In this document: positions 30,062-56,973 of the stretch, one piece after another | Layout of the letters: each line of letters starts with the position of its first letter | Position numbering within the stretch: the stretch's first letter is position 1 | Source: a virus | Taxonomy: Duplodnaviria > Caudoviricetes | IMG/VR virus record: IMGVR_UViG_3300026546_000005 | Coordinates: 1-56,973 of that record | DNA: 56,973 nt | Reading direction: 5' to 3' (one strand) | Notes under the pieces: generated by a model | What the model was told of the DNA's origin: nothing | Database searches by the model: none | The model's input: the letters and a program-made list of their open reading frames with translations, nothing else | Program-made: the position numbers and the translations under genes

Positions 30062-30646
30062 TTAATAAATAATTAATTTTTTAACAGCTTCTTCATTATT
30101 AGTATTAACAACAATAAATATAATTCCAGTAATTGAATTAAAATTTGTTTCTGTTGTGTTTGGATATAGTATTAATAATAATCGACCTGTTACATCATAC
30201 ATTTTTACTTCATTTATAATATCATCTGCTGTAACATATATTACTCTATTATTTTCTCTAACATTTATTTTAGATATAGGTGTTTTATAATCTTGCGTTG
30301 GTATATATATTCGTCCATAATAAATTGTATTTGCAACTAATTCTTCATTTCCTGCTGAATCAACCCAGTATGAAAAACGTTCATTTTCATAATGTTCAAC
30401 TCTATATGTTAAATACTCATTATTTAAACTATCATAGGAATAAAAATATATTTCTGTTTCTGTTTCAAACCATTTTCCATATAATTCCCAATTATTTAGA
30501 CTGTCTTTTTTATAAAAAAACGTATTTTGACCATTATACACAGCTTTAAGCGTAGCAGTATCATTAACATATGTTACTAAACTATCTAATTGTGCTGTAA
30601 CGTTATATGTTATAAATAATAATAAAAAAGTAATTAAATATTTCAT
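30062..30646 (-). CDS. Secreted protein with T9SS type A C-terminal sorting domain
   Basis: Sec signal ending TA-Q; C-terminal MYDVTGRLL...GIIFIVV...KKLII. Confidence 0.65.
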   Translation of the reverse strand: MKYLITFLLLFITYNVTAQLDSLVTYVNDTATLKAVYNGQNTFFYKKDSLNNWELYGKWFETETEIYFYSYDSLNNEYLTYRVEHYENERFSYWVDSAGNEELVANTIYYGRIYIPTQDYKTPISKINVRENNRVIYVTADDIINEVKMYDVTGRLLLILYPNTTETNFNSITGIIFIVVNTNNEEAVKKLIIY

Positions 30647-30883: not shown

Positions 30884-30978
30884 GGATGGGTTATCCGAAA
30901 GATTGCAGGGTACCGGAAACGGTCTTGAAAACCGTTACCGCCTCGTCGGCGGTGTGGGTTCGAATCCCACCTCATCCG
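30884..30978 (+). tRNA. tRNA-Ser(UGA), enlarged D loop
   Basis: GGATGGG/CTCATCC acceptor, ACGGT-CTTGAAA-ACCGT, long variable arm, TTCGAAT. Confidence 0.85.
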
Positions 30979-33347: not shown

Positions 33348-34931
33348 ATGGCTAAATTTAACAAAAAAACAGAAAAAGAGACTCTTATTAATGACATGGG
33401 TCAAAAAGCATTCAAACTTTCTCCAAAGGAAGAGTTAATATCAACTGTATTAACTACATTTGTTACTAATTCATTTTATGAATCAGAAAACGAAATATTG
33501 GATAGAATTCGTAAAGCCATGTCAAAATGCGATACTGAATTTGTCGCAAAGACTGCTTTATACACAAGACGTGATGCAAATATGCGTAGTTCATCACACG
33601 TGTTAGCTGGCGAATTAGCACAACGTGCAGCAGGAAAGGAATGGGCTAAAAGATTCTACAAAAATATTTGTGTTCGTCCTGATGATATGGCAGAAATTTT
33701 GGGTTATTACTTAAATGTAATTCGTGAAGGTTCTGATGGTAAAAAAATACCTAATTCAATGAAAAAAGGATTTAAAGCTAAACTTGAATCTTTAGATCCA
33801 TATTTAATTGACAAATATAAAATGAAAAGACGCGCAATTAAGTTAATTGATTTAGTTAATTTATTTCATCCAAAACCAAATGAAAAAAATGCTGAAGCAT
33901 TTAAACGTTTACGTGATGGTATGCCTTTAGATGATCTTTATACTTCTAAAATTCTTGAAAAAGAAATGTCTAAAGCCGGACAAAACACAGAAGATAAAAA
34001 AGAAGCTAAAGCAACTGCTATTCGTGAAACATTAACTGCGAATGAAAGTAAGTCACCAATTTTTAACTTAGTTAGAAATTTACGTAACATACTTGAAAGC
34101 ACACCAGATATGGTTGATGATGTAGTAACAAACATTACAAATCGTGATAAAATTTTAAAATCACGCATGTTACCATTTAGATTTGCAACTGCATATGCTG
34201 AAGTTGAAAAACTTAATGCAGTTGATAGAGACGCAAAAACTAAAGTTTTAAATGCACTTGAAACTGCAATTAATTACTCATGTGAAAATATTCCTGAGTT
34301 ATTTGGTAATACTGCTATATTAATTGACCATTCAGGTTCAATGAGAGGTAGTAACGGTAGTGGATCATCAAAAGTATCTGCATTTTCAGATGTAACAACA
34401 TCTATTATTGCTAATTTATTTGGAGTAATGCTAATGCAATCTCAAGATAATGTATACATGGGATTATTTGGTGACAGACTTGTAACAGTAAAAGACATTG
34501 ATCGTTCAAAAGGTGTTTTAAAAACACATAAAGAAGTTCATAAATTAGGTTCAACATGTGGCCTTAGTTCAGAACATGGTTTATTCGAGTTTTTTGCTGA
34601 CGTTGTTAGACATAGAGTTAGAGTTGATAATGTTATCATATTTTCAGATATGGTAATTGGTTCTAACAGCTGGTATGGTCGCGGATCAATTGGGGACATT
34701 AGAACAGGTTCTGGATCGTTTAATTCATTGTTTAAACGCTTTAAAGAACTAAATCCTTTAGCAAATATAGTATCAGTAAACTTACATGATACTAAAGGAA
34801 CAACAGTCTTTAATAAAAAACTTGGTGTTACTCAAATTTCTGGATGGTCTGAAAAGATTTTTGATGTATTGAAAAATATGTCTAAAGGTTATGAAGATAT
34901 AATTGCAGAAATTGAAGCAATTAAACTTTAA
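33348..34931 (+). CDS. Ro60/Rsr-like TROVE-domain RNA-binding protein
   Basis: G..AF.LSP..EL, FYE, ALY.R....MR, RPDD, KY, L.DL..L.HPKP, LVRNLRN, SR.LPFRF, vWA DHSGSM. Confidence 0.9.
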   Translation: MAKFNKKTEKETLINDMGQKAFKLSPKEELISTVLTTFVTNSFYESENEILDRIRKAMSKCDTEFVAKTALYTRRDANMRSSSHVLAGELAQRAAGKEWAKRFYKNICVRPDDMAEILGYYLNVIREGSDGKKIPNSMKKGFKAKLESLDPYLIDKYKMKRRAIKLIDLVNLFHPKPNEKNAEAFKRLRDGMPLDDLYTSKILEKEMSKAGQNTEDKKEAKATAIRETLTANESKSPIFNLVRNLRNILESTPDMVDDVVTNITNRDKILKSRMLPFRFATAYAEVEKLNAVDRDAKTKVLNALETAINYSCENIPELFGNTAILIDHSGSMRGSNGSGSSKVSAFSDVTTSIIANLFGVMLMQSQDNVYMGLFGDRLVTVKDIDRSKGVLKTHKEVHKLGSTCGLSSEHGLFEFFADVVRHRVRVDNVIIFSDMVIGSNSWYGRGSIGDIRTGSGSFNSLFKRFKELNPLANIVSVNLHDTKGTTVFNKKLGVTQISGWSEKIFDVLKNMSKGYEDIIAEIEAIKL

Positions 34932-35272: not shown

Positions 35273-35281
35273 TTTCAACTT

Positions 35282-35419
35282 GGCGAGGACAGACAACACA
35301 TTAATATTAAACGTTCTCTGTTCATAGTAGTAATAATATTAATTACATCGATTAGCGATATTGGTTTCGCACCTTGGTTTTGGTCCAAGTCTATGCGGGT
35401 TCGATTCCCGCCCTCGCCG
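35282..35419 (+). ncRNA. Element 3: tRNA-Gln(UUG)-like RNA with the Y domain inserted between the acceptor 5' strand and the D arm
   Basis: GGCGAGG(35282-88)/CCTCGCC(35412-18); insert with ATTAATATTA/TAATATTAAT, TAGT, TACATCG; CTTGG-TTTTGGT-CCAAG. Confidence 0.7.
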
Positions 35420-35426
35420 CGAATTT

Positions 35427-35570
35427 TAAAGTTGGATAGTGATAAAAAACGTTACTTCGTAGCTCAGATGGGTAGAGCAATTGACTGCAGATCAATGGGT
35501 CGTTGGTTCAACTCCAACCGAAAACGTTAATTCGTTTTCTTCACGTTTTTTAAACGTACTTCCAACTTTA
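35427..35570 (+). ncRNA. Y-RNA-like element 4 with tRNA-Cys(GCA)-like D, anticodon and T arms and a loop-closed acceptor-like hairpin
   Basis: TAAAGTTGGA/TCCAACTTTA, TAAAAAACGT/ACGTTTTTTA, TACTTCG; ATTGA-CTGCAGA-TCAAT; GAAAACG/CGTTTTC. Confidence 0.7.
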
Positions 35571-35588: not shown

Positions 35589-36338
35589 ATGAAAGTTAAA
35601 AAACAAACAGAGCAAACATTTAAATTTGTAAAATCTATAAAATTTGGTAGAACTGACTTACCAACACTTGTTTTTATATTTGGTTATCCGTTTAAAATAA
35701 AGGAACATTTTAATTATGACGGAAATTTTTATTATATTGATAGTCATTATAATAAAGCATTAGTTTATCCGTCTCCTTTTTTAAATATAAAAGATTTATC
35801 ACGTGTAATTGCTAAAGAATTATTATCTAAATTAAAAACTTCAGATGTAGTTTTAGTTGGTTACTCTCTTGGTGCAGTATATTCATTAGAAATATCTAAA
35901 ATATTAGAAGAAAATAATATTAATGTAAAATTACAATTATTAATTGATCCAATTGATACAATATATAATTTTAATACTAAATTATACAATAAATTAAGAT
36001 ATTCTTTTTGTTTTACTGCTTTATTTAGTCGATATTTAATATTTAGTTTTTTAGTAAAATTGCAAAACATATTTAATTTTAAAATTATTACTAGATCAAT
36101 TTATATTAATTCAGTGTATAGAATACATTTATTACGCTATAATTTTTCTTATAATAATATAAATACAATTTTAATTAAAAACTCTACTAATTGTAATAAA
36201 ACTAAATATAGTTGGATTGATATTTTTAAAAAAGATAATATTGATTTAAAAGTGTTTAATGCTAAAAAACATTCTGATTTTTTCTTTAATGAAAGTATAT
36301 TAAAAAAATGGATTAATATACTAAAATTAAATATATAA
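35589..36338 (+). CDS. Stand-alone thioesterase (alpha/beta hydrolase), paralog of the NRPS TE domain; start revised to ATG 35589
   Basis: GYSLG, LIDP, KKHSDFF; NYDG.FYYIDSHYN shared with the 55357 protein. Confidence 0.75.
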   Translation: MKVKKQTEQTFKFVKSIKFGRTDLPTLVFIFGYPFKIKEHFNYDGNFYYIDSHYNKALVYPSPFLNIKDLSRVIAKELLSKLKTSDVVLVGYSLGAVYSLEISKILEENNINVKLQLLIDPIDTIYNFNTKLYNKLRYSFCFTALFSRYLIFSFLVKLQNIFNFKIITRSIYINSVYRIHLLRYNFSYNNINTILIKNSTNCNKTKYSWIDIFKKDNIDLKVFNAKKHSDFFFNESILKKWINILKLNI

Positions 36339-37011: not shown

Positions 37012-37461
37012 TTATTGAATTTCAATTTTTTTAACTTCTTTAGCTTCTTCAATTTCTTTAACATTCTTTTTCAATGTTACAGTTAAAATACCTTTATCAA
37101 AAGATGCATTTATATCATCTTCTTGAACATCTTCAGGTAATGTAAAGCTTCTTTCAAACATATTATATTTAAATTCTCTACGGATGTAATTTTTATCTTC
37201 TACTTTCTTTTCACTTTCATTTTTAGATTTAATAGTTAACATATTATCCTTAATAAATACATCCACATCTTCTTTTCCTGCACCTGGCAATGAAACTTCT
37301 AATTGATAGTTATCATCATTTTCAATAACGTTTACTTTTCCAAAATCATTGCCAGATAACGATTGCAATGGACGATAAAATAAATCATCCATAAAATTAT
37401 TACCAAAAAAGTCATCTAATAGACTTGGTAAATATCCTGGAGTTCTTTTCATTAACATCAT
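37012..37461 (-). CDS. Small heat-shock protein Hsp20/alpha-crystallin
   Basis: VNV.E, LPG..KEDV, YIRREF.Y..FERSFTLPE, ASFDKGILTV, IEI tail. Confidence 0.92.
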   Translation of the reverse strand: MMLMKRTPGYLPSLLDDFFGNNFMDDLFYRPLQSLSGNDFGKVNVIENDDNYQLEVSLPGAGKEDVDVFIKDNMLTIKSKNESEKKVEDKNYIRREFKYNMFERSFTLPEDVQEDDINASFDKGILTVTLKKNVKEIEEAKEVKKIEIQ

Positions 37462-43639: not shown

Positions 43640-45154
43640 TTAAAATTGTTTGAATATATTTAAAAATTCTGATTTATTAAAATTATATTTAATATTTTTT
43701 TCATCTGTGAAACTTGATGGTGCAACAATTTTATTTACTGCATCTATATAACAAGTTGTTTTACCTTCACTTGATACTAAATATTTACCATGTACACCAG
43801 CATGTTCTAATTCACTTTTATACTTATGAACTAAAACACTATCAATTCCAAAATTTAAATAGTATGGGCTTTTTGAATATTTTTTTAATATATCATACCA
43901 TTTATAATATGGTTCATATACAGTATAATTTACACCTCTTCCTTTATTTTTAAATCCCAAAAATGTAACATTTTCAATGCGAGATTTATTAATAATATCT
44001 AAGTGTAGTGGTAAATCAGTTATTAATTCTAAAATACTTTGAATATAAATAGTTGCACTGTTGTAAATTGTTAACATTAATTTATTTACATGTGCAATTA
44101 CTAATTGTAATTCTTCTTCAGTATTTGCAGAAAATGCTAATGCGTGTATATTTTCTAAAACTCGTTGTTCCTTTTTAGTACTTCCAATATTATAATTTTT
44201 TGTTGTTAAACTAATTTTAAATTTATGCTTTTTAAATGCTGCAACAATTCTATCTAATTCAGGATGTGCTGTAGGCTCACCACCACCAATTACAACTTCA
44301 AAAACATTAGATGCTTTTAATTCAGGAATAATATTATTAATTATAAAATTAGCATCAGCATGTTGTCCATGTAAAGTTGAATTTTGATAACAATAATTAC
44401 AATTATATGAACATTTATCTGTTATTTTTAAATCTACTAAATAAGGATATGTTGATTTTTCAGGTATTAAATATGATATTGTATCATCATTTATATCATC
44501 AAATATATTATGTTGTTTATTTTTTAATTCATTTAAATCATGATTAAATATTAATTTGAACAATATTCCTTTTGTTGTAGATGAAATTGTCCATTCTTTA
44601 GTTATTGGATCTTTAATACAATACGTTTCATCAAGATATGTTAATTGATATAAAATACGTATTATTTTATCAGTATCATCATTTTTAATATGTAAAATTT
44701 TTAATGGATGTTCATGATCATCATTATCATTACCTCCTAATATAACATAGCTATTTTCAACTAATTCTTTATATAAATCTATAAAAAAATCAATTGATGG
44801 ATATTCTGGATTAGAATAATCATGTGGAATTCGTATAACACTTTGATGATCAACATATCCATCCTTAATTTTATTTAAAACTCTATTTATATTTGGTATA
44901 AATTCAGATAATTTAGATGTATTTGCACGAATAAATGCATCTTTTTCATTATATGATACATTTGCCATTAAAGTTAATAATAAATATCTTGTTTTACATA
45001 TTTTAGTTTTACATGTAAAAAAATTCCAACCAAATTCATCATAGTCATTATATTCATCAAAATAATCTATTATTGAATTATTATTAGAAAAAATAATACT
45101 ATGTGAACTTGAAGAATTACTTGCAAATCCATATCTTATAAACGTAATTATCAT
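43640..45154 (-). CDS. Radical SAM protein with N-terminal RxGFxxNSSSSHS domain
   Basis: CSYNCNYC, GGGEPT.HP, YIDAV. Confidence 0.85.
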   Translation of the reverse strand: MIITFIRYGFASNSSSSHSIIFSNNNSIIDYFDEYNDYDEFGWNFFTCKTKICKTRYLLLTLMANVSYNEKDAFIRANTSKLSEFIPNINRVLNKIKDGYVDHQSVIRIPHDYSNPEYPSIDFFIDLYKELVENSYVILGGNDNDDHEHPLKILHIKNDDTDKIIRILYQLTYLDETYCIKDPITKEWTISSTTKGILFKLIFNHDLNELKNKQHNIFDDINDDTISYLIPEKSTYPYLVDLKITDKCSYNCNYCYQNSTLHGQHADANFIINNIIPELKASNVFEVVIGGGEPTAHPELDRIVAAFKKHKFKISLTTKNYNIGSTKKEQRVLENIHALAFSANTEEELQLVIAHVNKLMLTIYNSATIYIQSILELITDLPLHLDIINKSRIENVTFLGFKNKGRGVNYTVYEPYYKWYDILKKYSKSPYYLNFGIDSVLVHKYKSELEHAGVHGKYLVSSEGKTTCYIDAVNKIVAPSSFTDEKNIKYNFNKSEFLNIFKQF

Positions 45155-51180: not shown

Positions 51181-51209
51181 AAAAAGCTTGTTAATTAACA
51201 AGCTTTTTT
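51181..51209. terminator. Bidirectional terminator
   Basis: AAAAAGCTTGTT/AACAAGCTTTTT between convergent genes. Confidence 0.7.
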
Positions 51210-52582
51210 ATTTCATTATTATTAATCATATATTCAAATAAAATTTCCTTTTTATTTTCTAATTCGCCATTAATTACTTTATCATAAATAATCTTTTTTA
51301 TATCTCCTACAACTTTAGAAGGTTTTAAATTATAATAATTCATTATATCATCACCAGTTAATTCAATTCTAAAATTACGCAAATCATCTTCTTCACGAAC
51401 TTTTTGAATATGATCATATAATTTATTAAGATCTTTTATCATTTTATCTTTTTTGTCTTGATATTTAGTTGTCATATCACAACTAGCAAATAATAATAAA
51501 TCTTCTAAATTATCACCTAATTCGACGATTAAACGTCTAACAGCTGAATCTGTTACACCTTCTTTTACGAGTTCTTTAGGTCTTCCATGATACTTTATTA
51601 ACAAATAAAGTTTATTAGTAAATTGACGACCAAATTTAATTCTATTAGTAACATGTTTTAATAAATACGCTCCAACTTTTTCATGGTTGTGAAAAGTCCA
51701 ACCTCGTTGTTTGTCAAATCTTTTTGTTTTATATTTACCAATGTCATGTAATAAAGCAGTCCACAGTAAAACTAAATCATCAGTTTTTTCTCTAGTTTGA
51801 TCTAGTACTTGTAAACTGTGATAATAGTTATTCTTATGTTTTTGTTCTGCAATTTCTTCAACTTCATTAAGTTTAACAACTTCAGGTAATAAATAATCTA
51901 ATATTCCAACCTTTCTCATTAATTCTATTGCAATTGATGGTTTATCTAATAACATTATTTTATTAAGTTCATTAAGTAATCTTGAATTACTAACAACACT
52001 TAATAAATTTATATTATTAATTATACTATTTAATGTATTTTTTTCAATATTTAAATTGTATTTTGCTGCTAATCTAATTGCTCGAATTATACGAATTGAA
52101 TCATCAATAAATGTATCATCTGCTTTTATAGGTGTTTTTAAAATTTTATTATTAATATCATTTAAACCATTAAAATAATCTATAACATTTCCAGTTTTAA
52201 TATCTAATGCTAAAGTGTTAATAGTAAAATCTCTACGTTTAAGATCATCTATTAATTGTATATCGTTTTTAGATTTTTTATATGATTTAACTTTAGCCTT
52301 TACTATTTCAATATTAATATCATTATATTGAAGACTTACTGTTCCATATCGTTTAAAAATATGAACATATTTTTTATCTATGTTCAATTTTTCACAAATA
52401 TTGAACATCAATTTTTCTTCAGAATAATTTAAAACAACAATGTCAATATCTTTAGATTTTTTACCTAATATTAAATCTCTAACATATCCACCAACAATAT
52501 ATGCATCAATATTATTTTGATTACATATACTTTTTATTTCATTTAGTGCGTTACTGTTATTAATAATATTTAAATAATTCAT
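51191..52582 (-). CDS. cca: tRNA nucleotidyltransferase (class II CCA-type) with HD domain
   Basis: VGGYVRD...DID, RRDFTIN, DD.IR.IRA.R, LLHDIGK. Confidence 0.85.
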   Translation of the reverse strand: MNYLNIINNSNALNEIKSICNQNNIDAYIVGGYVRDLILGKKSKDIDIVVLNYSEEKLMFNICEKLNIDKKYVHIFKRYGTVSLQYNDINIEIVKAKVKSYKKSKNDIQLIDDLKRRDFTINTLALDIKTGNVIDYFNGLNDINNKILKTPIKADDTFIDDSIRIIRAIRLAAKYNLNIEKNTLNSIINNINLLSVVSNSRLLNELNKIMLLDKPSIAIELMRKVGILDYLLPEVVKLNEVEEIAEQKHKNNYYHSLQVLDQTREKTDDLVLLWTALLHDIGKYKTKRFDKQRGWTFHNHEKVGAYLLKHVTNRIKFGRQFTNKLYLLIKYHGRPKELVKEGVTDSAVRRLIVELGDNLEDLLLFASCDMTTKYQDKKDKMIKDLNKLYDHIQKVREEDDLRNFRIELTGDDIMNYYNLKPSKVVGDIKKIIYDKVINGELENKKEILFEYMINNNEIKKLVN

Positions 52583-52686: not shown

Positions 52687-54075
52687 ATGCCGATCAAAGG
52701 AAAACAAATAGTAGATAACACAATTACACAAAAACAACTTGGTGTCGTAACTGAATCAATTGCACAACCAACTGATGTTACAACAAAAAAATATGTTGAT
52801 AGTACTGTTGATAGTGCTGTTACTGGATTAACATACACAGATATTGATTATAATATATCAGCGACTGATACAACTGGAGAATCACCAGTATTAGCAACAG
52901 ATCATCAAATTAGTAAAATACCAGTTGGTGGTGTTAGAGTATATGTAAATGGTTTAGAAATAAACGTTGGACCGGGTCTTATGTCGTTTTTTGCTCCAGA
53001 AAGTAGTGGAACACCAACTCCTAGAGAGTTCGAAGAAGAACAACAAGGTGATTATTTATGGTGGGATCCATCTATTGCTAAATATCAACTGGAAAGCACT
53101 GATGATATAGATTTTGTATATAGAACATATACTGAAGAATATCCAATAATTTCTAATCCAATTAATATTGCAAATGACGCAAAAAACGTTGACGCTTCTG
53201 CACAAACAGGTATTTCTGAGTCTATTACAATAACAGGCATTGATTCAACAGATTTATCTACTAGTGTAACTGACACAGGATTAATTCAATCTATATTTGT
53301 ATCTAATGTTCAATTAGTAATTAATGGATCTGGTGATATAACATCATTTACATTTGATGTTTCTGAAAATACTAGTTCATCACCAAGAACAAATACAATT
53401 AAAATATATCAAACTTCTAATCCAGATGTATTTGATACTATTGATATTATTCAAGCTGGATCTAATATTACATATTATATCACATTTGATAATGATGAAG
53501 GTGAATATACTAATGGCGCACAAACAGGTTTATCAGAAAGTATATCTTCAAATGTTCCAGCATTAAATGCTACTGCAACTGTAGTTGAAACAAATCCGTT
53601 TGTTAGTGACTTAAATGTTACATCAGGAGCTGATGATACTGTAATAGGAGTGTCGTTTAATATAACTGAAAATACTGGATCTACATATAGAACAAATACA
53701 ATTAAAGTCGAACATGATGAAGATTCATCAATTTATGACACAATAATTATTAAACAATATCCATCTCCATCTATAACAATTGATCCAACAAGTCTCACAT
53801 TAGATTTATTAGATGAGTCATTTACTGTAGATGTTACATCTAATGTACCTTGGACAGCAAGTGTGTCATTTGTATCTGGACAAAATTTTATTACTGGAAT
53901 AAGTCCAAATAATGGCGATGGTGGCAGTAGTACAGTTACAATAACATGTACAGTTGATGATCCACCTGCATCTGGTGAACCTGATAACGTATCAGATATA
54001 AAAATTAATTCAGCTTCACCATTTAGTTCTACAACATATGCAACATGCCGTGTCACTCAACCTGCGTCACATTAA
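52687..54075 (+). CDS. Putative virion protein (IKGKQI family) with BACON-like Ig repeats
   Basis: Family N-terminus; F.V.EN....RT.TI and VTSNVPWT repeats. Confidence 0.6.
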   Translation: MPIKGKQIVDNTITQKQLGVVTESIAQPTDVTTKKYVDSTVDSAVTGLTYTDIDYNISATDTTGESPVLATDHQISKIPVGGVRVYVNGLEINVGPGLMSFFAPESSGTPTPREFEEEQQGDYLWWDPSIAKYQLESTDDIDFVYRTYTEEYPIISNPINIANDAKNVDASAQTGISESITITGIDSTDLSTSVTDTGLIQSIFVSNVQLVINGSGDITSFTFDVSENTSSSPRTNTIKIYQTSNPDVFDTIDIIQAGSNITYYITFDNDEGEYTNGAQTGLSESISSNVPALNATATVVETNPFVSDLNVTSGADDTVIGVSFNITENTGSTYRTNTIKVEHDEDSSIYDTIIIKQYPSPSITIDPTSLTLDLLDESFTVDVTSNVPWTASVSFVSGQNFITGISPNNGDGGSSTVTITCTVDDPPASGEPDNVSDIKINSASPFSSTTYATCRVTQPASH

Positions 54076-54091
54076 TGTATCATATTAATAT

Positions 54092-54130
54092 AAAAAAGAA
54101 ACTACATAAAATTTTATGTAGTTTCTTTTT
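54092..54130 (+). terminator. Intrinsic terminator
   Basis: AAAAAGAAACTACATAAA/TTTATGTAGTTTCTTTTT. Confidence 0.8.
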
Positions 54131-54188
54131 GTTTTATCATATTATAGAAAAATAAAATAATATATAATAAAAATATGTCTTTTTTAAA

Positions 54189-54920
54189 ATGCCTATAAAA
54201 GGAAAACAAATTATAGATAAAACTATTAATCAACAAAAAGTTTTAGTAGAAACTAGTTCGATTGTATATAATGACGATGTAAATAATAAAGAATATTTAT
54301 TTTCTAGATTACAAGATCGTATTAGTGAAATGCATTATTCATTATTAAATGAAAATATGCCCGCATATAACGCATCAAATGGACAAAAAGCAACTAAAGA
54401 TGCAGTTATTGAATTTCCATATTCTGATGTTAGAGTATTTGTAAATGGTGAACAAGTTAATGTTGGTCAAGGAACAAACATGGATTGTTATTTTTCACCT
54501 GATGACGGCGTCACAATTAGAGATGGTGGTAATGCAGAAAAAGGTGATTATTTATATTGGACATCAAATAAATATGATTTGGATTCATCTGATTTAATAG
54601 ATTTTGTTTATGTTGTTGGTTATGTATATTTAGTTAAAGAACCAAATTCTACTGTAACATTAGTTCCTGGATATAATCATGTTGTAGTAGAATATACAGG
54701 TGGAGAAGGAACAACAATGACAGTTACATTAGGAAACTCAAATATAACAGTTGGAAATGTTAGCGGTAATTTTGTTTGGGATATTGGTGGATCACAAGAA
54801 CATACATTTAATGTTAATAATAATAATGAATCTATTATTGTAACATATGATGGAGAAGATTACACGGTCTGGTATGATGGAATAGGAAGTTTATTATATA
54901 GTATAAAATTAAATATATAA
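54189..54920 (+). CDS. Putative virion protein (IKGKQI family), full-length paralog of 12159-12893
   Basis: CYFSPD, KGD.LYW, VGNV.G.F.WDIG shared. Confidence 0.6.
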   Translation: MPIKGKQIIDKTINQQKVLVETSSIVYNDDVNNKEYLFSRLQDRISEMHYSLLNENMPAYNASNGQKATKDAVIEFPYSDVRVFVNGEQVNVGQGTNMDCYFSPDDGVTIRDGGNAEKGDYLYWTSNKYDLDSSDLIDFVYVVGYVYLVKEPNSTVTLVPGYNHVVVEYTGGEGTTMTVTLGNSNITVGNVSGNFVWDIGGSQEHTFNVNNNNESIIVTYDGEDYTVWYDGIGSLLYSIKLNI

Positions 54921-54929
54921 GCTAGACCA

Positions 54930-55353
54930 TAATTATCAACAAATAATGGTAAATTTAAAATGACAATAAATGTTACAAATGCTGATGATTCATTTACAAT
55001 ACACAAGCTAATGAAACAAATAATTTTATTGTTAATTTGAACAAGAATAATTTTGGCATTTTTACATATAACTGTTCATCATTAACTGATATTGGTAATT
55101 TATGTAATTAAGACTTTAGTTCTACGGCTGACACAACAAAATGTGTTTATAAATTATGTAACGTTAATAACATATAAGTCTGTAGATTTATTTTAAAATA
55201 ACTTAAACATTACAAATTATAATTACATTTTTATAGATACAACTAATATAAATAATTATTGTTAAACATCATCTAGTTGAGTAGTGTTGGAAGTTATAGT
55301 CCTAGAACAATACTAGATCAACACACTGGAACAAATGAAACAAAATATGTATA
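54930..55353 (+). pseudogene. Possible decayed BspA/DUF285-like gene
   Basis: Fragments FKMTINVTNADDSFTI and NCSSLTDIGNLCN*DFSS in shifted frames with stops. Confidence 0.35.
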
Positions 55354-55356
55354 ATA

Positions 55357-56973
55357 TTAATTTAAATGGCTGTTTAAATAATTATTAAATAAACTCATCC
55401 ATTCTTTTATAACACTCTGATTATTAAAAAAATCAGAGTGTTTTTTTACATTTAATATATGGTAAATTCTATGTAAAAACAAATGTTTAAAATTATTTTT
55501 AGACGAGCTATTATTGTTATTGCGTTGTATTAAAATCGTTAAGTCATTTGTATAATTGAAATTATATTTTAATCTATGAAATGCATATATTGAATGAATA
55601 TATTTAAAACGTTTTAATATTTTTAAATTAAAAATTTTTTGTATATTCCAAATTAAATAATAAATAATAAATCTAATATAATTAAATATTAACTGAGAAT
55701 AATATTTATACTTATTAACTATTTTATTATTTAATATATTTATCGAATCTCGTGGATCAAGTAAAAATAAAAATTTAATATTTTTATCTTTTTCTTTTAA
55801 TTGTTTTGATAATTCTAAAGCGTATACTGATCCTATTGAATAACCAGCTAAAATTATATCTTTATTATCAATAAGTTCTAATATTTCATTAACTCTAACT
55901 TTACAATAATCTTCTATATTATCGTAAATACTAGGAATTGTTGCATAACTATTATAATGACTATCAATATAATAAAAATCTCCATCATAATTTAAATCTT
56001 TTCTAATTACATTTGGATATCCAGTTGCCCAAAATATAGGTGGTAATTTTTTATCACCTTTAATAATATGTTTAATATATTTAAAATAATGATTAGGACG
56101 TTTATTTAATTCTGTTGCTAAATCATATATTGTTGAATGTTCATAAATTATATTATCAGTTAATGTAACACTTAATTCATTTTCTATTTCATTTGTTATT
56201 AATTGCGCAGTTAAAGAATCACCACCTAATTCATCAAAAAAATTATCAAAGACAGAAATTTCATCAACAGATAGATATGTTTTCCATATATTTAATAATT
56301 TTATTTCTAATTCTGTTAATTCTTTATCTTGTTTTTTAATATTAATTAAATTAGTTATTGTATTTTCTATAAATATTCTATCTATTTTTCCATTTTCTTT
56401 TTGAGGGATTTCATCTAATTTTATACATCTAGCAGGAACCATATAAAATTCTAAATTATTCATTAAATAATGCTTAACTTGTAATTCAGATAAATTTTCA
56501 TTTGATTCATAAAATAAATATAAATTTTTATATTTTTTAGAATACATACAATACGCGTCATCAACAATATTAGATGCAATAGATGCAATATAATCTGGAT
56601 TTACTCTGGCGCCACTTATTTTAACATGCGATTCTGCGCGTCCTTCAAAATACAATTCGTCATTTATTTTTTTAACATAATCATTTGATATAAATGTTTT
56701 AATTCCATTTTCAATTGTTAATACTTTATTTGTTTCTTCTTCGTTGTTAATATATCCATTAAATAAATATTTTGATTTAATTAACAATCTTCCAACATTT
56801 TTGTCATTATTTTGATCATCATGTATTAATTCAATATTAATTTTATTTATAGGTTTACCTAATGAAATAGTTTGTGTGTTAACAATAGAATTATGATTTA
56901 ATACATTATGTAAAATTATGCCTGTTTCTGAACTTGCTAATAATATGTAATATTTTGCATTTGGAAAATATTT
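55357..56973 (-). CDS. NRPS-like adenylation-thiolation-thioesterase protein (5' end outside the window)
   Basis: Frame open to the window end; LASSETG (A5), GRLLIKS.YLF.GY (A6), GR...VKISG.RV (A8), YMVP (A9), NGKIDR (A10), DNFF.LGGDSL (PCP), GYSIG (TE). Confidence 0.88.
   Translation of the reverse strand, partial: KYFPNAKYYILLASSETGIILHNVLNHNSIVNTQTISLGKPINKINIELIHDDQNNDKNVGRLLIKSKYLFNGYINNEEETNKVLTIENGIKTFISNDYVKKINDELYFEGRAESHVKISGARVNPDYIASIASNIVDDAYCMYSKKYKNLYLFYESNENLSELQVKHYLMNNLEFYMVPARCIKLDEIPQKENGKIDRIFIENTITNLINIKKQDKELTELEIKLLNIWKTYLSVDEISVFDNFFDELGGDSLTAQLITNEIENELSVTLTDNIIYEHSTIYDLATELNKRPNHYFKYIKHIIKGDKKLPPIFWATGYPNVIRKDLNYDGDFYYIDSHYNSYATIPSIYDNIEDYCKVRVNEILELIDNKDIILAGYSIGSVYALELSKQLKEKDKNIKFLFLLDPRDSINILNNKIVNKYKYYSQLIFNYIRFIIYYLIWNIQKIFNLKILKRFKYIHSIYAFHRLKYNFNYTNDLTILIQRNNNNSSSKNNFKHLFLHRIYHILNVKKHSDFFNNQSVIKEWMSLFNNYLNSHLN

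Follow-up and report, generated by a model that had tools for sequence, protein, structure and literature searches.

Uncharacterized stand-alone adenylation-thiolation-thioesterase (A-T-TE) proteins of ~800–1000 amino acids (aa) are carried by Bacillota, Pseudomonadota, Acidobacteriota, and Actinomycetota, and the same architecture is found in the non-reducing enzymes of the nonribosomal peptide synthetase (NRPS)-like kind, in which, according to PMC9047271, the TE domain condenses two α-keto-acid units and forms the product. As A-T-TE enzymes are common in bacteria and well studied in fungi, this kind of enzyme is already known. Phage-borne biosynthetic gene clusters (BGCs) are, in the passage of one survey cited here (Dragos et al., bioRxiv 10.1101/2020.10.01.322628), nearly all bacteriocins of temperate phages; one AMP-binding case, a partial one, is reported besides. 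Here we describe the 3′ part of an A-T-TE gene at the end of the IMG/VR virus record IMGVR_UViG_3300026546_000005. The window analyzed is the entire record, a linear stretch of 56,973 nucleotides (nt) with a CheckV completeness of 26%, from which we calculate a genome of roughly 220 kb. We consider it likely that the gene codes for a stand-alone, single-module NRPS-like enzyme of ~800 aa with the order A-T-TE and, as part of the same judgment, that this enzyme adenylates a non-amino acyl unit, binds it as a thioester on a holo-carrier, and off-loads it through the TE. Its phage setting is unusual, as is the branch of the family to which it belongs.

The gene lies on the minus strand, a detail missing from the first-pass annotation, which had been made from the letters of the DNA alone and had proposed an NRPS-like A-T-TE enzyme at 55357–56973. 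Its frame extends from the window's final base to a TAA at 55357–55359 and comprises 538 codons and no start codon, because the contig ends inside the gene; at the given base composition, 538 stop-free codons have a chance probability of ~1e-22 to 1e-26. Judged from its relatives, the missing 5′ end would comprise ~270–300 codons beyond the contig end; the window holds the last two thirds of the gene, with motifs A1–A4 beyond it. Motifs A5–A10, a carrier domain, and a thioesterase all lie in this one frame, which confirms the first-pass proposal. A terminator-like hairpin (55411–55442) is located inside the coding region. The features of the gene and of its window protein (P0001) are as follows.

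55357..56973, minus strand: 3′ part of the A-T-TE gene, 538 codons plus TAA (single open frame, open at its 5′ end)
56359..56973, minus strand: C-terminal portion of the adenylation domain (last stretch of the core, then the small subdomain; motifs A5–A10), from NCBIfam alignment and motifs
56386–56388, minus strand: codon of the A10 lysine, Lys196, in the motif NGKIDR
56113..56301, minus strand: thiolation (carrier) domain, from a Pfam PP-binding match in a six-frame search
56215–56217, minus strand: codon of the phosphopantetheine-site serine, Ser253, in LGGDSL
55360..56100, minus strand: thioesterase-fold domain, residues 292–538, from motifs, Pfam, model, and Foldseek
55837–55839, minus strand: codon of Ser379, in GYSIG
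55756–55758, minus strand: codon of Asp406, in LLDPRD
55438–55440, minus strand: codon of His512, in KKHSDFF

The adenylation domain is partial in the window (~200 residues, C-terminal part only) because the contig ends inside the gene. P0001 residues 3–206 align to the C-terminal third of the DltA and NRPS adenylation models of NCBIfam, and PF00501 matches over its last ~60 model positions (16.3 bits versus a cut-off of 29.9), the contig end truncating the domain. The sequence carries ASSETG (residues 13–18), FISND (94–98), GRAESHVKISGARV (111–124), LEFYMVP (174–180), and NGKIDR (194–199), which represent motifs A5–A10 in the naming of the NRPS literature. The A5 Glu, A7 Asp, and A10 Lys are all present, in columns that are invariant in 5/5 and 7/7 family members. 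The first-pass annotation had remarked that several A motifs are divergent (LASSE, ISND). These substitutions are real, with [LA]A[SA][ST]ETG in place of YGPTE and [ST][NG]D in place of TGD, but they do not reflect decay, since they are common to 7/7 aligned members, the Methylococcaceae ones included, and affect neither the conserved Glu and Asp nor the Lys of A10. Nor does a frameshift, which had been raised as something that would undo the assignment, occur in the 538 codons present.

The thiolation domain matches Pfam PP-binding (PF00550) at P0001 residues 225–287 (E 1.2e-12, 48.3 bits versus a cut-off of 20.8; 52.4 bits in the six-frame search, 56113–56301). LGGDSL occupies residues 249–254, with Ser253 inside it, and Gly250, Gly251, and Ser253 are invariant in all 12 aligned carrier domains. 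The TE domain carries GYSIG (377–381), LLDPRD (404–409), and KKHSDFF (510–516), and the triad Ser379/Asp406/His512 falls on invariant columns in 16/16 family members; in the domain numbering of this 16-member TE alignment, Gly86, Ser88, Gly90, Asp115, and His221 are invariant. Pfam Thioesterase (PF00975) aligns to residues 348–406 of P0001 with 24.1–25.5 bits, versus a cut-off of 26.4, which bacterial family members exceed (35.2 and 33.9 bits). A TE-only AlphaFold2 model built from the 16-member alignment, which was used in place of a whole-fragment model, has a mean predicted local distance difference test score (pLDDT) of 91.0 and a predicted template modeling score (pTM) of 0.89. It predicts the α/β-hydrolase order of strands and helices together with a two-helix lid, formed by two long helices at domain residues 130–178. 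When this model was compared with the PDB using Foldseek, all among the matches listed were polyketide synthase (PKS), NRPS, or fatty acid synthase (FAS) thioesterases, with the Pks13 TE at the top (E 8.9e-10, TMq 0.64–0.68) followed by AB3403, EntF, Vlm2, FAS-TE, and YbtT. Because of the predicted fold, the conservation of the triad, and the bacterial members above the Pfam cut-off, we assign the domain, as modeled, to the thioesterases of PF00975 type, its triad being intact.

When 5.8 billion proteins near the length range of the query were searched and the 7,999 candidates sharing the most words were scored, seven matches emerged, three of them close: P0002, a fragment of 361 aa with 97% identity to P0001 over 67% of the query; P0003, of 791 aa, with 57% identity; and P0004, of 835 aa, with 60% identity, the latter two covering 100% of the query. 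P0004 and P0003 match AMP-binding (E 1.8e-40 and 6.5e-31, respectively), carry TSGSTGNPKG as their A3 P-loop, and also have a PP-binding domain and a thioesterase-like end; a condensation (C) domain is absent from both of these complete proteins. Together with the PP-binding match and the TE fold, these full-length relatives bear out the domain order A-T-TE. Neither a C domain (PF00668) nor a second carrier was found in the window, outside which the N terminus of the gene lies. Searches among longer proteins (943–2,690 aa) returned 80 generic multimodular NRPSs, the best of which scored 156 bits, with at most 37% identity, versus 660–774 bits for the A-T-TE relatives, so nothing here suggests that family members derive from part of some larger synthetase.

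The motif residues are all kept in the relatives that are 57–60% identical, and P0002 differs from P0001 at 10/361 residues, none of them catalytic. At the nucleotide level, the in-gene differences listed for contigs of a second sequencing run (X2, see below) are synonymous third-position changes in 3/3 cases, 136 further differences across the compared stretch lying beyond those listed. The pattern of differences in P0002 and X2 is as expected under purifying selection.

Comparison with solved structures places the A-T part closest to canonical NRPS terminal modules (LgrA, TycA/GrsA, SrfA-C, EntF, and AB3403; E 5.9e-69 to 1e-34). P0004 aligns to LgrA (5.9e-69), TycA (6.9e-50), GrsA (1.2e-41), and DltA (3.8e-27), and SrfA-C and AB3403 align to it from the A domain through the TE. 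The TE fold, the GGDSL carrier motif, and the Ser-Asp-His TE are common to the canonical modules and the phage enzyme. In contrast to them, the phage-type enzyme is one module with no C domain, lacks an equivalent of Asp235 (GrsA numbering, see below), and scores below the cut-off of TIGR01733. The bacterial stand-alone A-T-TE proteins have the same domains in the same order at a similar length, and ESM Atlas clusters of them give feature scores of 0.95–0.99 and structure TM scores of 0.62–0.70. However, the phage clade is deeply diverged from them, with a TE of a rare type that falls under the Pfam cut-off, and it is phage-borne and accompanied by a duplicated, free-standing TE. Atromentin and polyporic acid synthetases are, like the phage enzyme, A-T-TE proteins without a C domain, and an α-keto substrate would fit the missing Asp; unlike these quinone/furanone synthetases, the phage family has two basic residues in the pocket, and no aminotransferase or tailoring partner is in view.

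A profile of the TE and its free-standing paralogue, run against 1.84 billion representative proteins, found 41 matches at E ≤ 1e-3, seven at E ≤ 1e-10, and three at E ≤ 1e-30. These include the A-T-TE proteins P0011, P0012, and P0016 (819–831 aa), and P0017 aligns at its carrier and TE domains in a scan of its C-terminal part; short T-TE or TE-only proteins are also among the matches. The nearest relatives outside the AT-rich clade are A-T-TE proteins of 814–838 aa from Methylococcaceae metagenome-assembled genomes (MAGs) and the metagenomic proteins P0011, P0012, and P0016, at 26–31% identity. Scans of IMG/VR with P0001 or the clade alignment, which use short peptide patterns and can miss relatives, found no close relatives; a wider alignment found six distant A-domain-only loci there, none extending to a T or TE domain, and a search via the neighboring CCA-adding enzyme found no related phages. 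A metagenome scan for contigs carrying P0003 or P0004 found none, and the matches of a scan based on the bacterial branch were all generic NRPS modules (23–30% identity).

The substrate binding pocket was compared in an alignment of seven family members and 32 A domains of ordinary NRPS type. The comparators came from 33 of 80 loci, all within L011–L058 and all with a full 10-kb upstream flank; one of the 33, L045, was dropped because of an internal stop. At the position equivalent to GrsA Asp235, Asp is found in 0/7 family members (Leu, Leu, Phe, Phe, Met, Met, and Phe) and in 24/32 comparators. The 299 equivalent is Arg in 7/7 family members versus 1/32 comparators, and the 239 equivalent is Arg or Lys in 7/7 versus 3/32. 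Because the Asp that would bind an α-amino group is missing, the substrate is probably a carboxylic acid without an α-amino group, and because Arg/Lys at two pocket positions would bind an anionic or polar group, it is probably anionic or a keto/hydroxy acid. Scores against TIGR01733 (amino-acid adenylation) of 185.6 (P0004), 252 (P0011), and 217.7 (the protein of locus L010), versus a cut-off of 317.4, and of P0004 against the DltA models NF003417 (148.8 versus 476) and TIGR01734 (141.8 versus 559.85), are consistent with such an atypical pocket.

A second copy of the TE is encoded 19 kb inside the same contig.

35589..36338, plus strand: free-standing TE paralogue, 249 aa from an ATG, identified by homology to the fused TE

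The paralogue is 41% identical to the fused TE in protein sequence (66% over the DNA match) and keeps GYSLG, LIDP, and KKHSDFF with their Ser, Asp, and His. A longer version of the frame, beginning with a TTG at 35481, runs over a tRNA (35456–35522, plus strand; Rfam 51.9 bits, no ARAGORN call, anticodon loop GCA, Cys); because of this overlap, the start is probably ATG 35589, and the TTG version is probably untranslated. P0009 (249 aa) is a 52%-identical homologue of the free-standing TE. In a maximum-likelihood tree of 16 TEs, midpoint-rooted and with three rows of atypical composition, the fused TEs of P0001/P0002, P0003, and P0004 and the two free-standing copies form one clade (support 100/99), within which the free-standing pair, the paralogue and P0009, has its own branch (support 100/99). 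As the tree unites the fused and free TEs and sets the free pair apart, it indicates that the TE was duplicated in the AT-rich lineage and that both copies were kept. The same carrier domain is probably also the target of the free TE, which would edit it or release the product differently; a predicted complex of the carrier with the free TE (score 0.01, mark 0.32) tells nothing either way.

The contig is a genuine phage fragment. PHROG matches occur in eight of the ten largest open reading frames (ORFs) and include head decoration, ribonucleotide reductase (RNR), DNA polymerase, tail fiber, and virion structural protein. A CCA-adding tRNA nucleotidyltransferase with an HD domain (51191–52582, minus strand; phrog_2244, E 2.4e-65) lies 3 kb from the gene, and ARAGORN calls ten tRNAs, with 11 RNA matches by Rfam, giving at least 11 tRNAs on the contig. 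The A-T-TE gene has a GC content of 19.8%, versus 24.6% for the whole window, and its GC content at third codon positions (GC3) is 8.3%, within the 5.3–14.8% of 14 other genes, in agreement with the first-pass remark that it is as AT-rich as its neighbors; its codon usage correlates with that of the pooled phage genes at r = 0.974, the phage genes' own range being 0.933–0.992. A public run (X1) that contains 95% of the sampled words, and is possibly the source sample, yields independently built contigs that tile the region at an even depth of 17.6–22.9. One of these, of 2,074 nt and with 0 differences, covers 54101–56174: it starts in the neighboring ORF, crosses the intergenic region, and reaches into the TE and T domains, taking in the first 818 nt of the gene, counted from 55357. 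Run X2, from a second study, contains a variant ~2% diverged, including over 55451–56241 (18 differences in 791 nt), and run X3 gives short pieces only.

These data also bear on the least probable of the readings we weighed, that the gene is an artefact or a relic, either a chimera in which host DNA was joined to a phage contig or a nonfunctional pseudogene in decay. The gene is at the very end of a contig that represents only ~26% of a genome, no RNA run is listed among the sequencing runs that contain the contig, and the X1 depth falls from ~28 to ~3.5 over the last ~500 nt, which is probably why the assembly stops there. Against a join, the GC3 and codon usage are indistinguishable from those of the phage genes, the bridging X1 contig connects the gene to its phage neighbor without a difference, and a second TE copy lies well within the contig; a chimera, which the first-pass annotation had named among the outcomes that would overturn its claim, is therefore very unlikely, and the phage setting that it had assumed stands on hallmark genes, tRNAs, codon usage, and bridging contigs. 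Against a relic, 538 codons remain open in 20% GC DNA (P ~1e-22 or less), the in-gene differences listed for the ~2% diverged X2 variant are synonymous, and the catalytic residues are all kept across relatives that are 57–60% identical. We thus regard an artefactual or decayed gene as very improbable.

The analysis establishes the domain content, the fold, the conservation of the catalytic residues, the location on a phage, and the rarity; the proposed mechanism, like the substrate class, the acceptor, and the biological role, is inferred. The adenylation domain would use ATP to convert a free carboxylic acid to an acyl-adenylate, from which the acyl group would pass to the thiol of the phosphopantetheine arm borne by Ser253, the carrier having first been primed by a phosphopantetheinyl transferase (PPTase), either that of the host or one of the phage's own from the unseen ~74% of the genome. 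The C-terminal TE would then take the acyl group onto Ser379 of the Ser379-Asp406-His512 triad and off-load it to water or to an acceptor. As there is no C domain, no peptide chain would be built, and the product would derive from one activated unit or from two copies thereof. Besides the gene and its free-standing paralogue, the window shows no other component of thiotemplate biosynthesis; no MbtH, aminotransferase, or transporter is present among the window ORFs scanned. The nearest bacterial A-T-TE genes (loci L009 and L010) are also solitary, one lying between MsrP-like and MsrQ-like genes and the other beside uracil-DNA glycosylase (UDG) and ExoIII genes, and tblastn found no neighbors common to L009, L010, and the window. 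In L010 (2343–7737, a Methylococcaceae MAG), the A-T-TE gene and a 243-aa ORF between the MsrP-like and MsrQ-like genes look like an insertion.

Several points weigh against this account. The first 270–300 residues are outside the window, and with them A1–A4 and, of nine variable specificity positions, five; the pocket of the phage gene is for this reason read from relatives 57–60% identical to it. The GrsA 235, 239, and 299 columns were mapped by hand from motif A4/A5 alignments, Asp235 being the residue that binds the substrate α-amino group. P0003 lacks ~23 residues around motif A2; P0003, P0004, and P0009 are known from protein sequence alone and not as phage genes; and P0004, at 185.6 bits, is well under the TIGR01733 cut-off of 317.4. 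The Pfam Thioesterase scores of the phage clade (24.1, 20.4, and 20.3 bits) are below 26.4, and an earlier AlphaFold model of the whole fragment was poor (pLDDT 57.2; T domain 24–39). A search of the window, ~26% of the genome, with PF01648 found no PPTase, as already noted at first pass.

Three more specific outcomes were considered, among which we place transfer to an envelope acceptor slightly above keto-acid dimerization, followed by amino-acid activation. The first is a particular version of the TE off-loading step, in which the TE acts as an acyltransferase and moves the carrier-bound acid either to a glycan or lipid on the host surface or to part of the virion; receptors would thereby be altered, for example for superinfection exclusion. 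The Pks13 TE, the best structural match to the model, passes an acyl chain to a sugar and not to water, and aromatic and basic residues are abundant in the predicted TE lid throughout the family, although the Foldseek margin of the Pks13 TE over hydrolytic and cyclizing TEs is small (E 9e-10 versus ~1e-8). Two distant relatives without Asp235 are in envelope loci: an A-T-C protein in L012 (5419–20046), with Arg at both pocket positions and with Wzz, Wzy-like, glycosyltransferase, ManC, and AsnB neighbors, and an A-T protein in L011 (9953–12683, Bacteroidales), directly followed by an LpxL-like acyltransferase. However, these are only two of the 32 comparator loci, are 28–29% identical, and have different third domains, whereas the closest bacterial A-T-TE relatives, L009 and L010, are without envelope-gene neighbors. 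The phage gene itself adjoins two ORFs that look structural, and one of these has a BACON domain of borderline score. The L011/L012 loci and the Pks13-TE-like fold are weak leads to envelope acyl transfer, which we consider unlikely as it stands.

A quinone/furanone-synthetase-like reaction, in which the A domain loads an α-keto acid and the TE joins two units to give a diffusible pigment or signal, would agree with the same three domains without a C domain, with the absence of the α-amino-binding Asp, and with a solitary gene, since tailoring neighbors are not needed for such chemistry. The likeness is nevertheless one of architecture, the two conserved Arg/Lys residues would suit a charged rather than an aromatic side chain, and no aminotransferase for the supply of aryl-pyruvate is found among the window ORFs scanned; we judge this outcome to be more doubtful than envelope transfer. 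Activation of an amino acid, DltA/DltC-like or by aminoacyl transfer, with the amino acid esterified onto a polymer or released, is favored by the best sequence matches, LgrA, TycA, GrsA, and DltA (E 3.8e-27), and by the NCBIfam DltA models, which align end to end (148.8 bits). Yet the α-amino-binding Asp is absent in 7/7 family members, and the scores are far under the DltA (148.8 versus 476) and TIGR01733 (185.6 versus 317.4) cut-offs, making this the most doubtful of the three. Off-loading of a non-amino acyl unit from a single A-T-TE module remains the reading that we prefer.

The first-pass annotation described such enzymes as unusual in phages, and the collections searched agree. PHROGs contains one matching NRPS-type family, a 5,652-position profile whose function is not known. 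In a phage collection, 34 of 50,697 records match, the best identity among the 25 matches listed being 25.2%, and several of those listed look like host DNA filed as phage; IMG/VR gave no relative with a T or TE domain. Going by their titles or abstracts, none of the papers listed in literature searches describes a phage enzyme of this kind. The locus resembles the phage BGCs covered in the passage cited from Dragos et al. in being a specialized-metabolism gene on a phage, and differs from them in being a complete-looking A-T-TE enzyme in a large phage with many tRNAs.

Other features of the window were recorded alongside. The two ORFs next to the A-T-TE gene (52687–54075 and 54189–54920, both plus strand) share a near-identical N terminus of ~20 residues (MPIKGKQI.D.TI.Q) and then diverge; neither matches a PHROG, and the pair may represent alternative proteins, receptor-binding or structural, that share an anchor. 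The former contains the borderline BACON domain (25.3 bits versus 25), and ORF 30062–30646 (minus strand) has a signal-peptide-like N terminus and sub-threshold type IX secretion system (T9SS) C-terminal sorting domains (20.8 versus 23; 21 versus 40); the BACON and T9SS hints point weakly to a Bacteroidota host. A TROVE/Ro60-like protein with a C terminus resembling von Willebrand factor A (vWA) is encoded at 33348–34931 (plus strand; Pfam TROVE, E 2.9e-14; phrog_850, E 2.1e-34), after which 35281–35522 holds a tRNA-Glu and a ~140-nt tRNA-like element with an acceptor stem and T-arm, called neither by ARAGORN nor by the Rfam tRNA model. A sub-threshold match to the Y RNA-like family YrlA of Rfam covers 35367–35506 (28 bits versus a cut-off of 69, E 8e-4), and the TROVE gene and RNA elements may constitute a phage-encoded Ro60/Y-RNA module. 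A tRNA cluster is headed by an Rfam tRNA-Sec match at 30884–30977 (plus strand; 47.7 bits versus a gathering score of 47, no ARAGORN call). A same-strand run of genes unusual for a phage (22407–29994, minus strand) comprises an M42 aminopeptidase, a protein matching a PHROG annotated as ‘alpha-glucosyltransferase’, cytidylyltransferase-like and UDG-family proteins, a DUF2201 metallopeptidase/vWA protein, and an AAA ATPase. A 504-aa radical SAM protein (43640–45154, minus strand) has an N-terminal extension of ~230 residues without a family match, and ORF 37012–37461 (minus strand) resembles, by eye, an Hsp20/α-crystallin small heat-shock protein.

Phages are hardly known to carry out thiotemplate (carrier-protein) biochemistry. 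The conserved, apparently functional A-T-TE enzyme and the duplicate of its TE suggest an ability of large phages to produce or transfer a small acyl compound themselves, and the odd pocket, without an amino-binding Asp and with two basic residues, appears to mark an uncharacterized substrate class for NRPS-like enzymes. It is conceivable, although we think it rather improbable, that a large phage of lytic type uses the A-T-TE enzyme and the free TE/acyltransferase during infection to modify a glycan or lipid of the host envelope, or else its own virion, with an unusual acidic acyl group. If true, this would be a previously undescribed phage route to surface remodeling or superinfection exclusion, and would give a function to a rare, uncharacterized A-T-TE family that is also found in bacteria.

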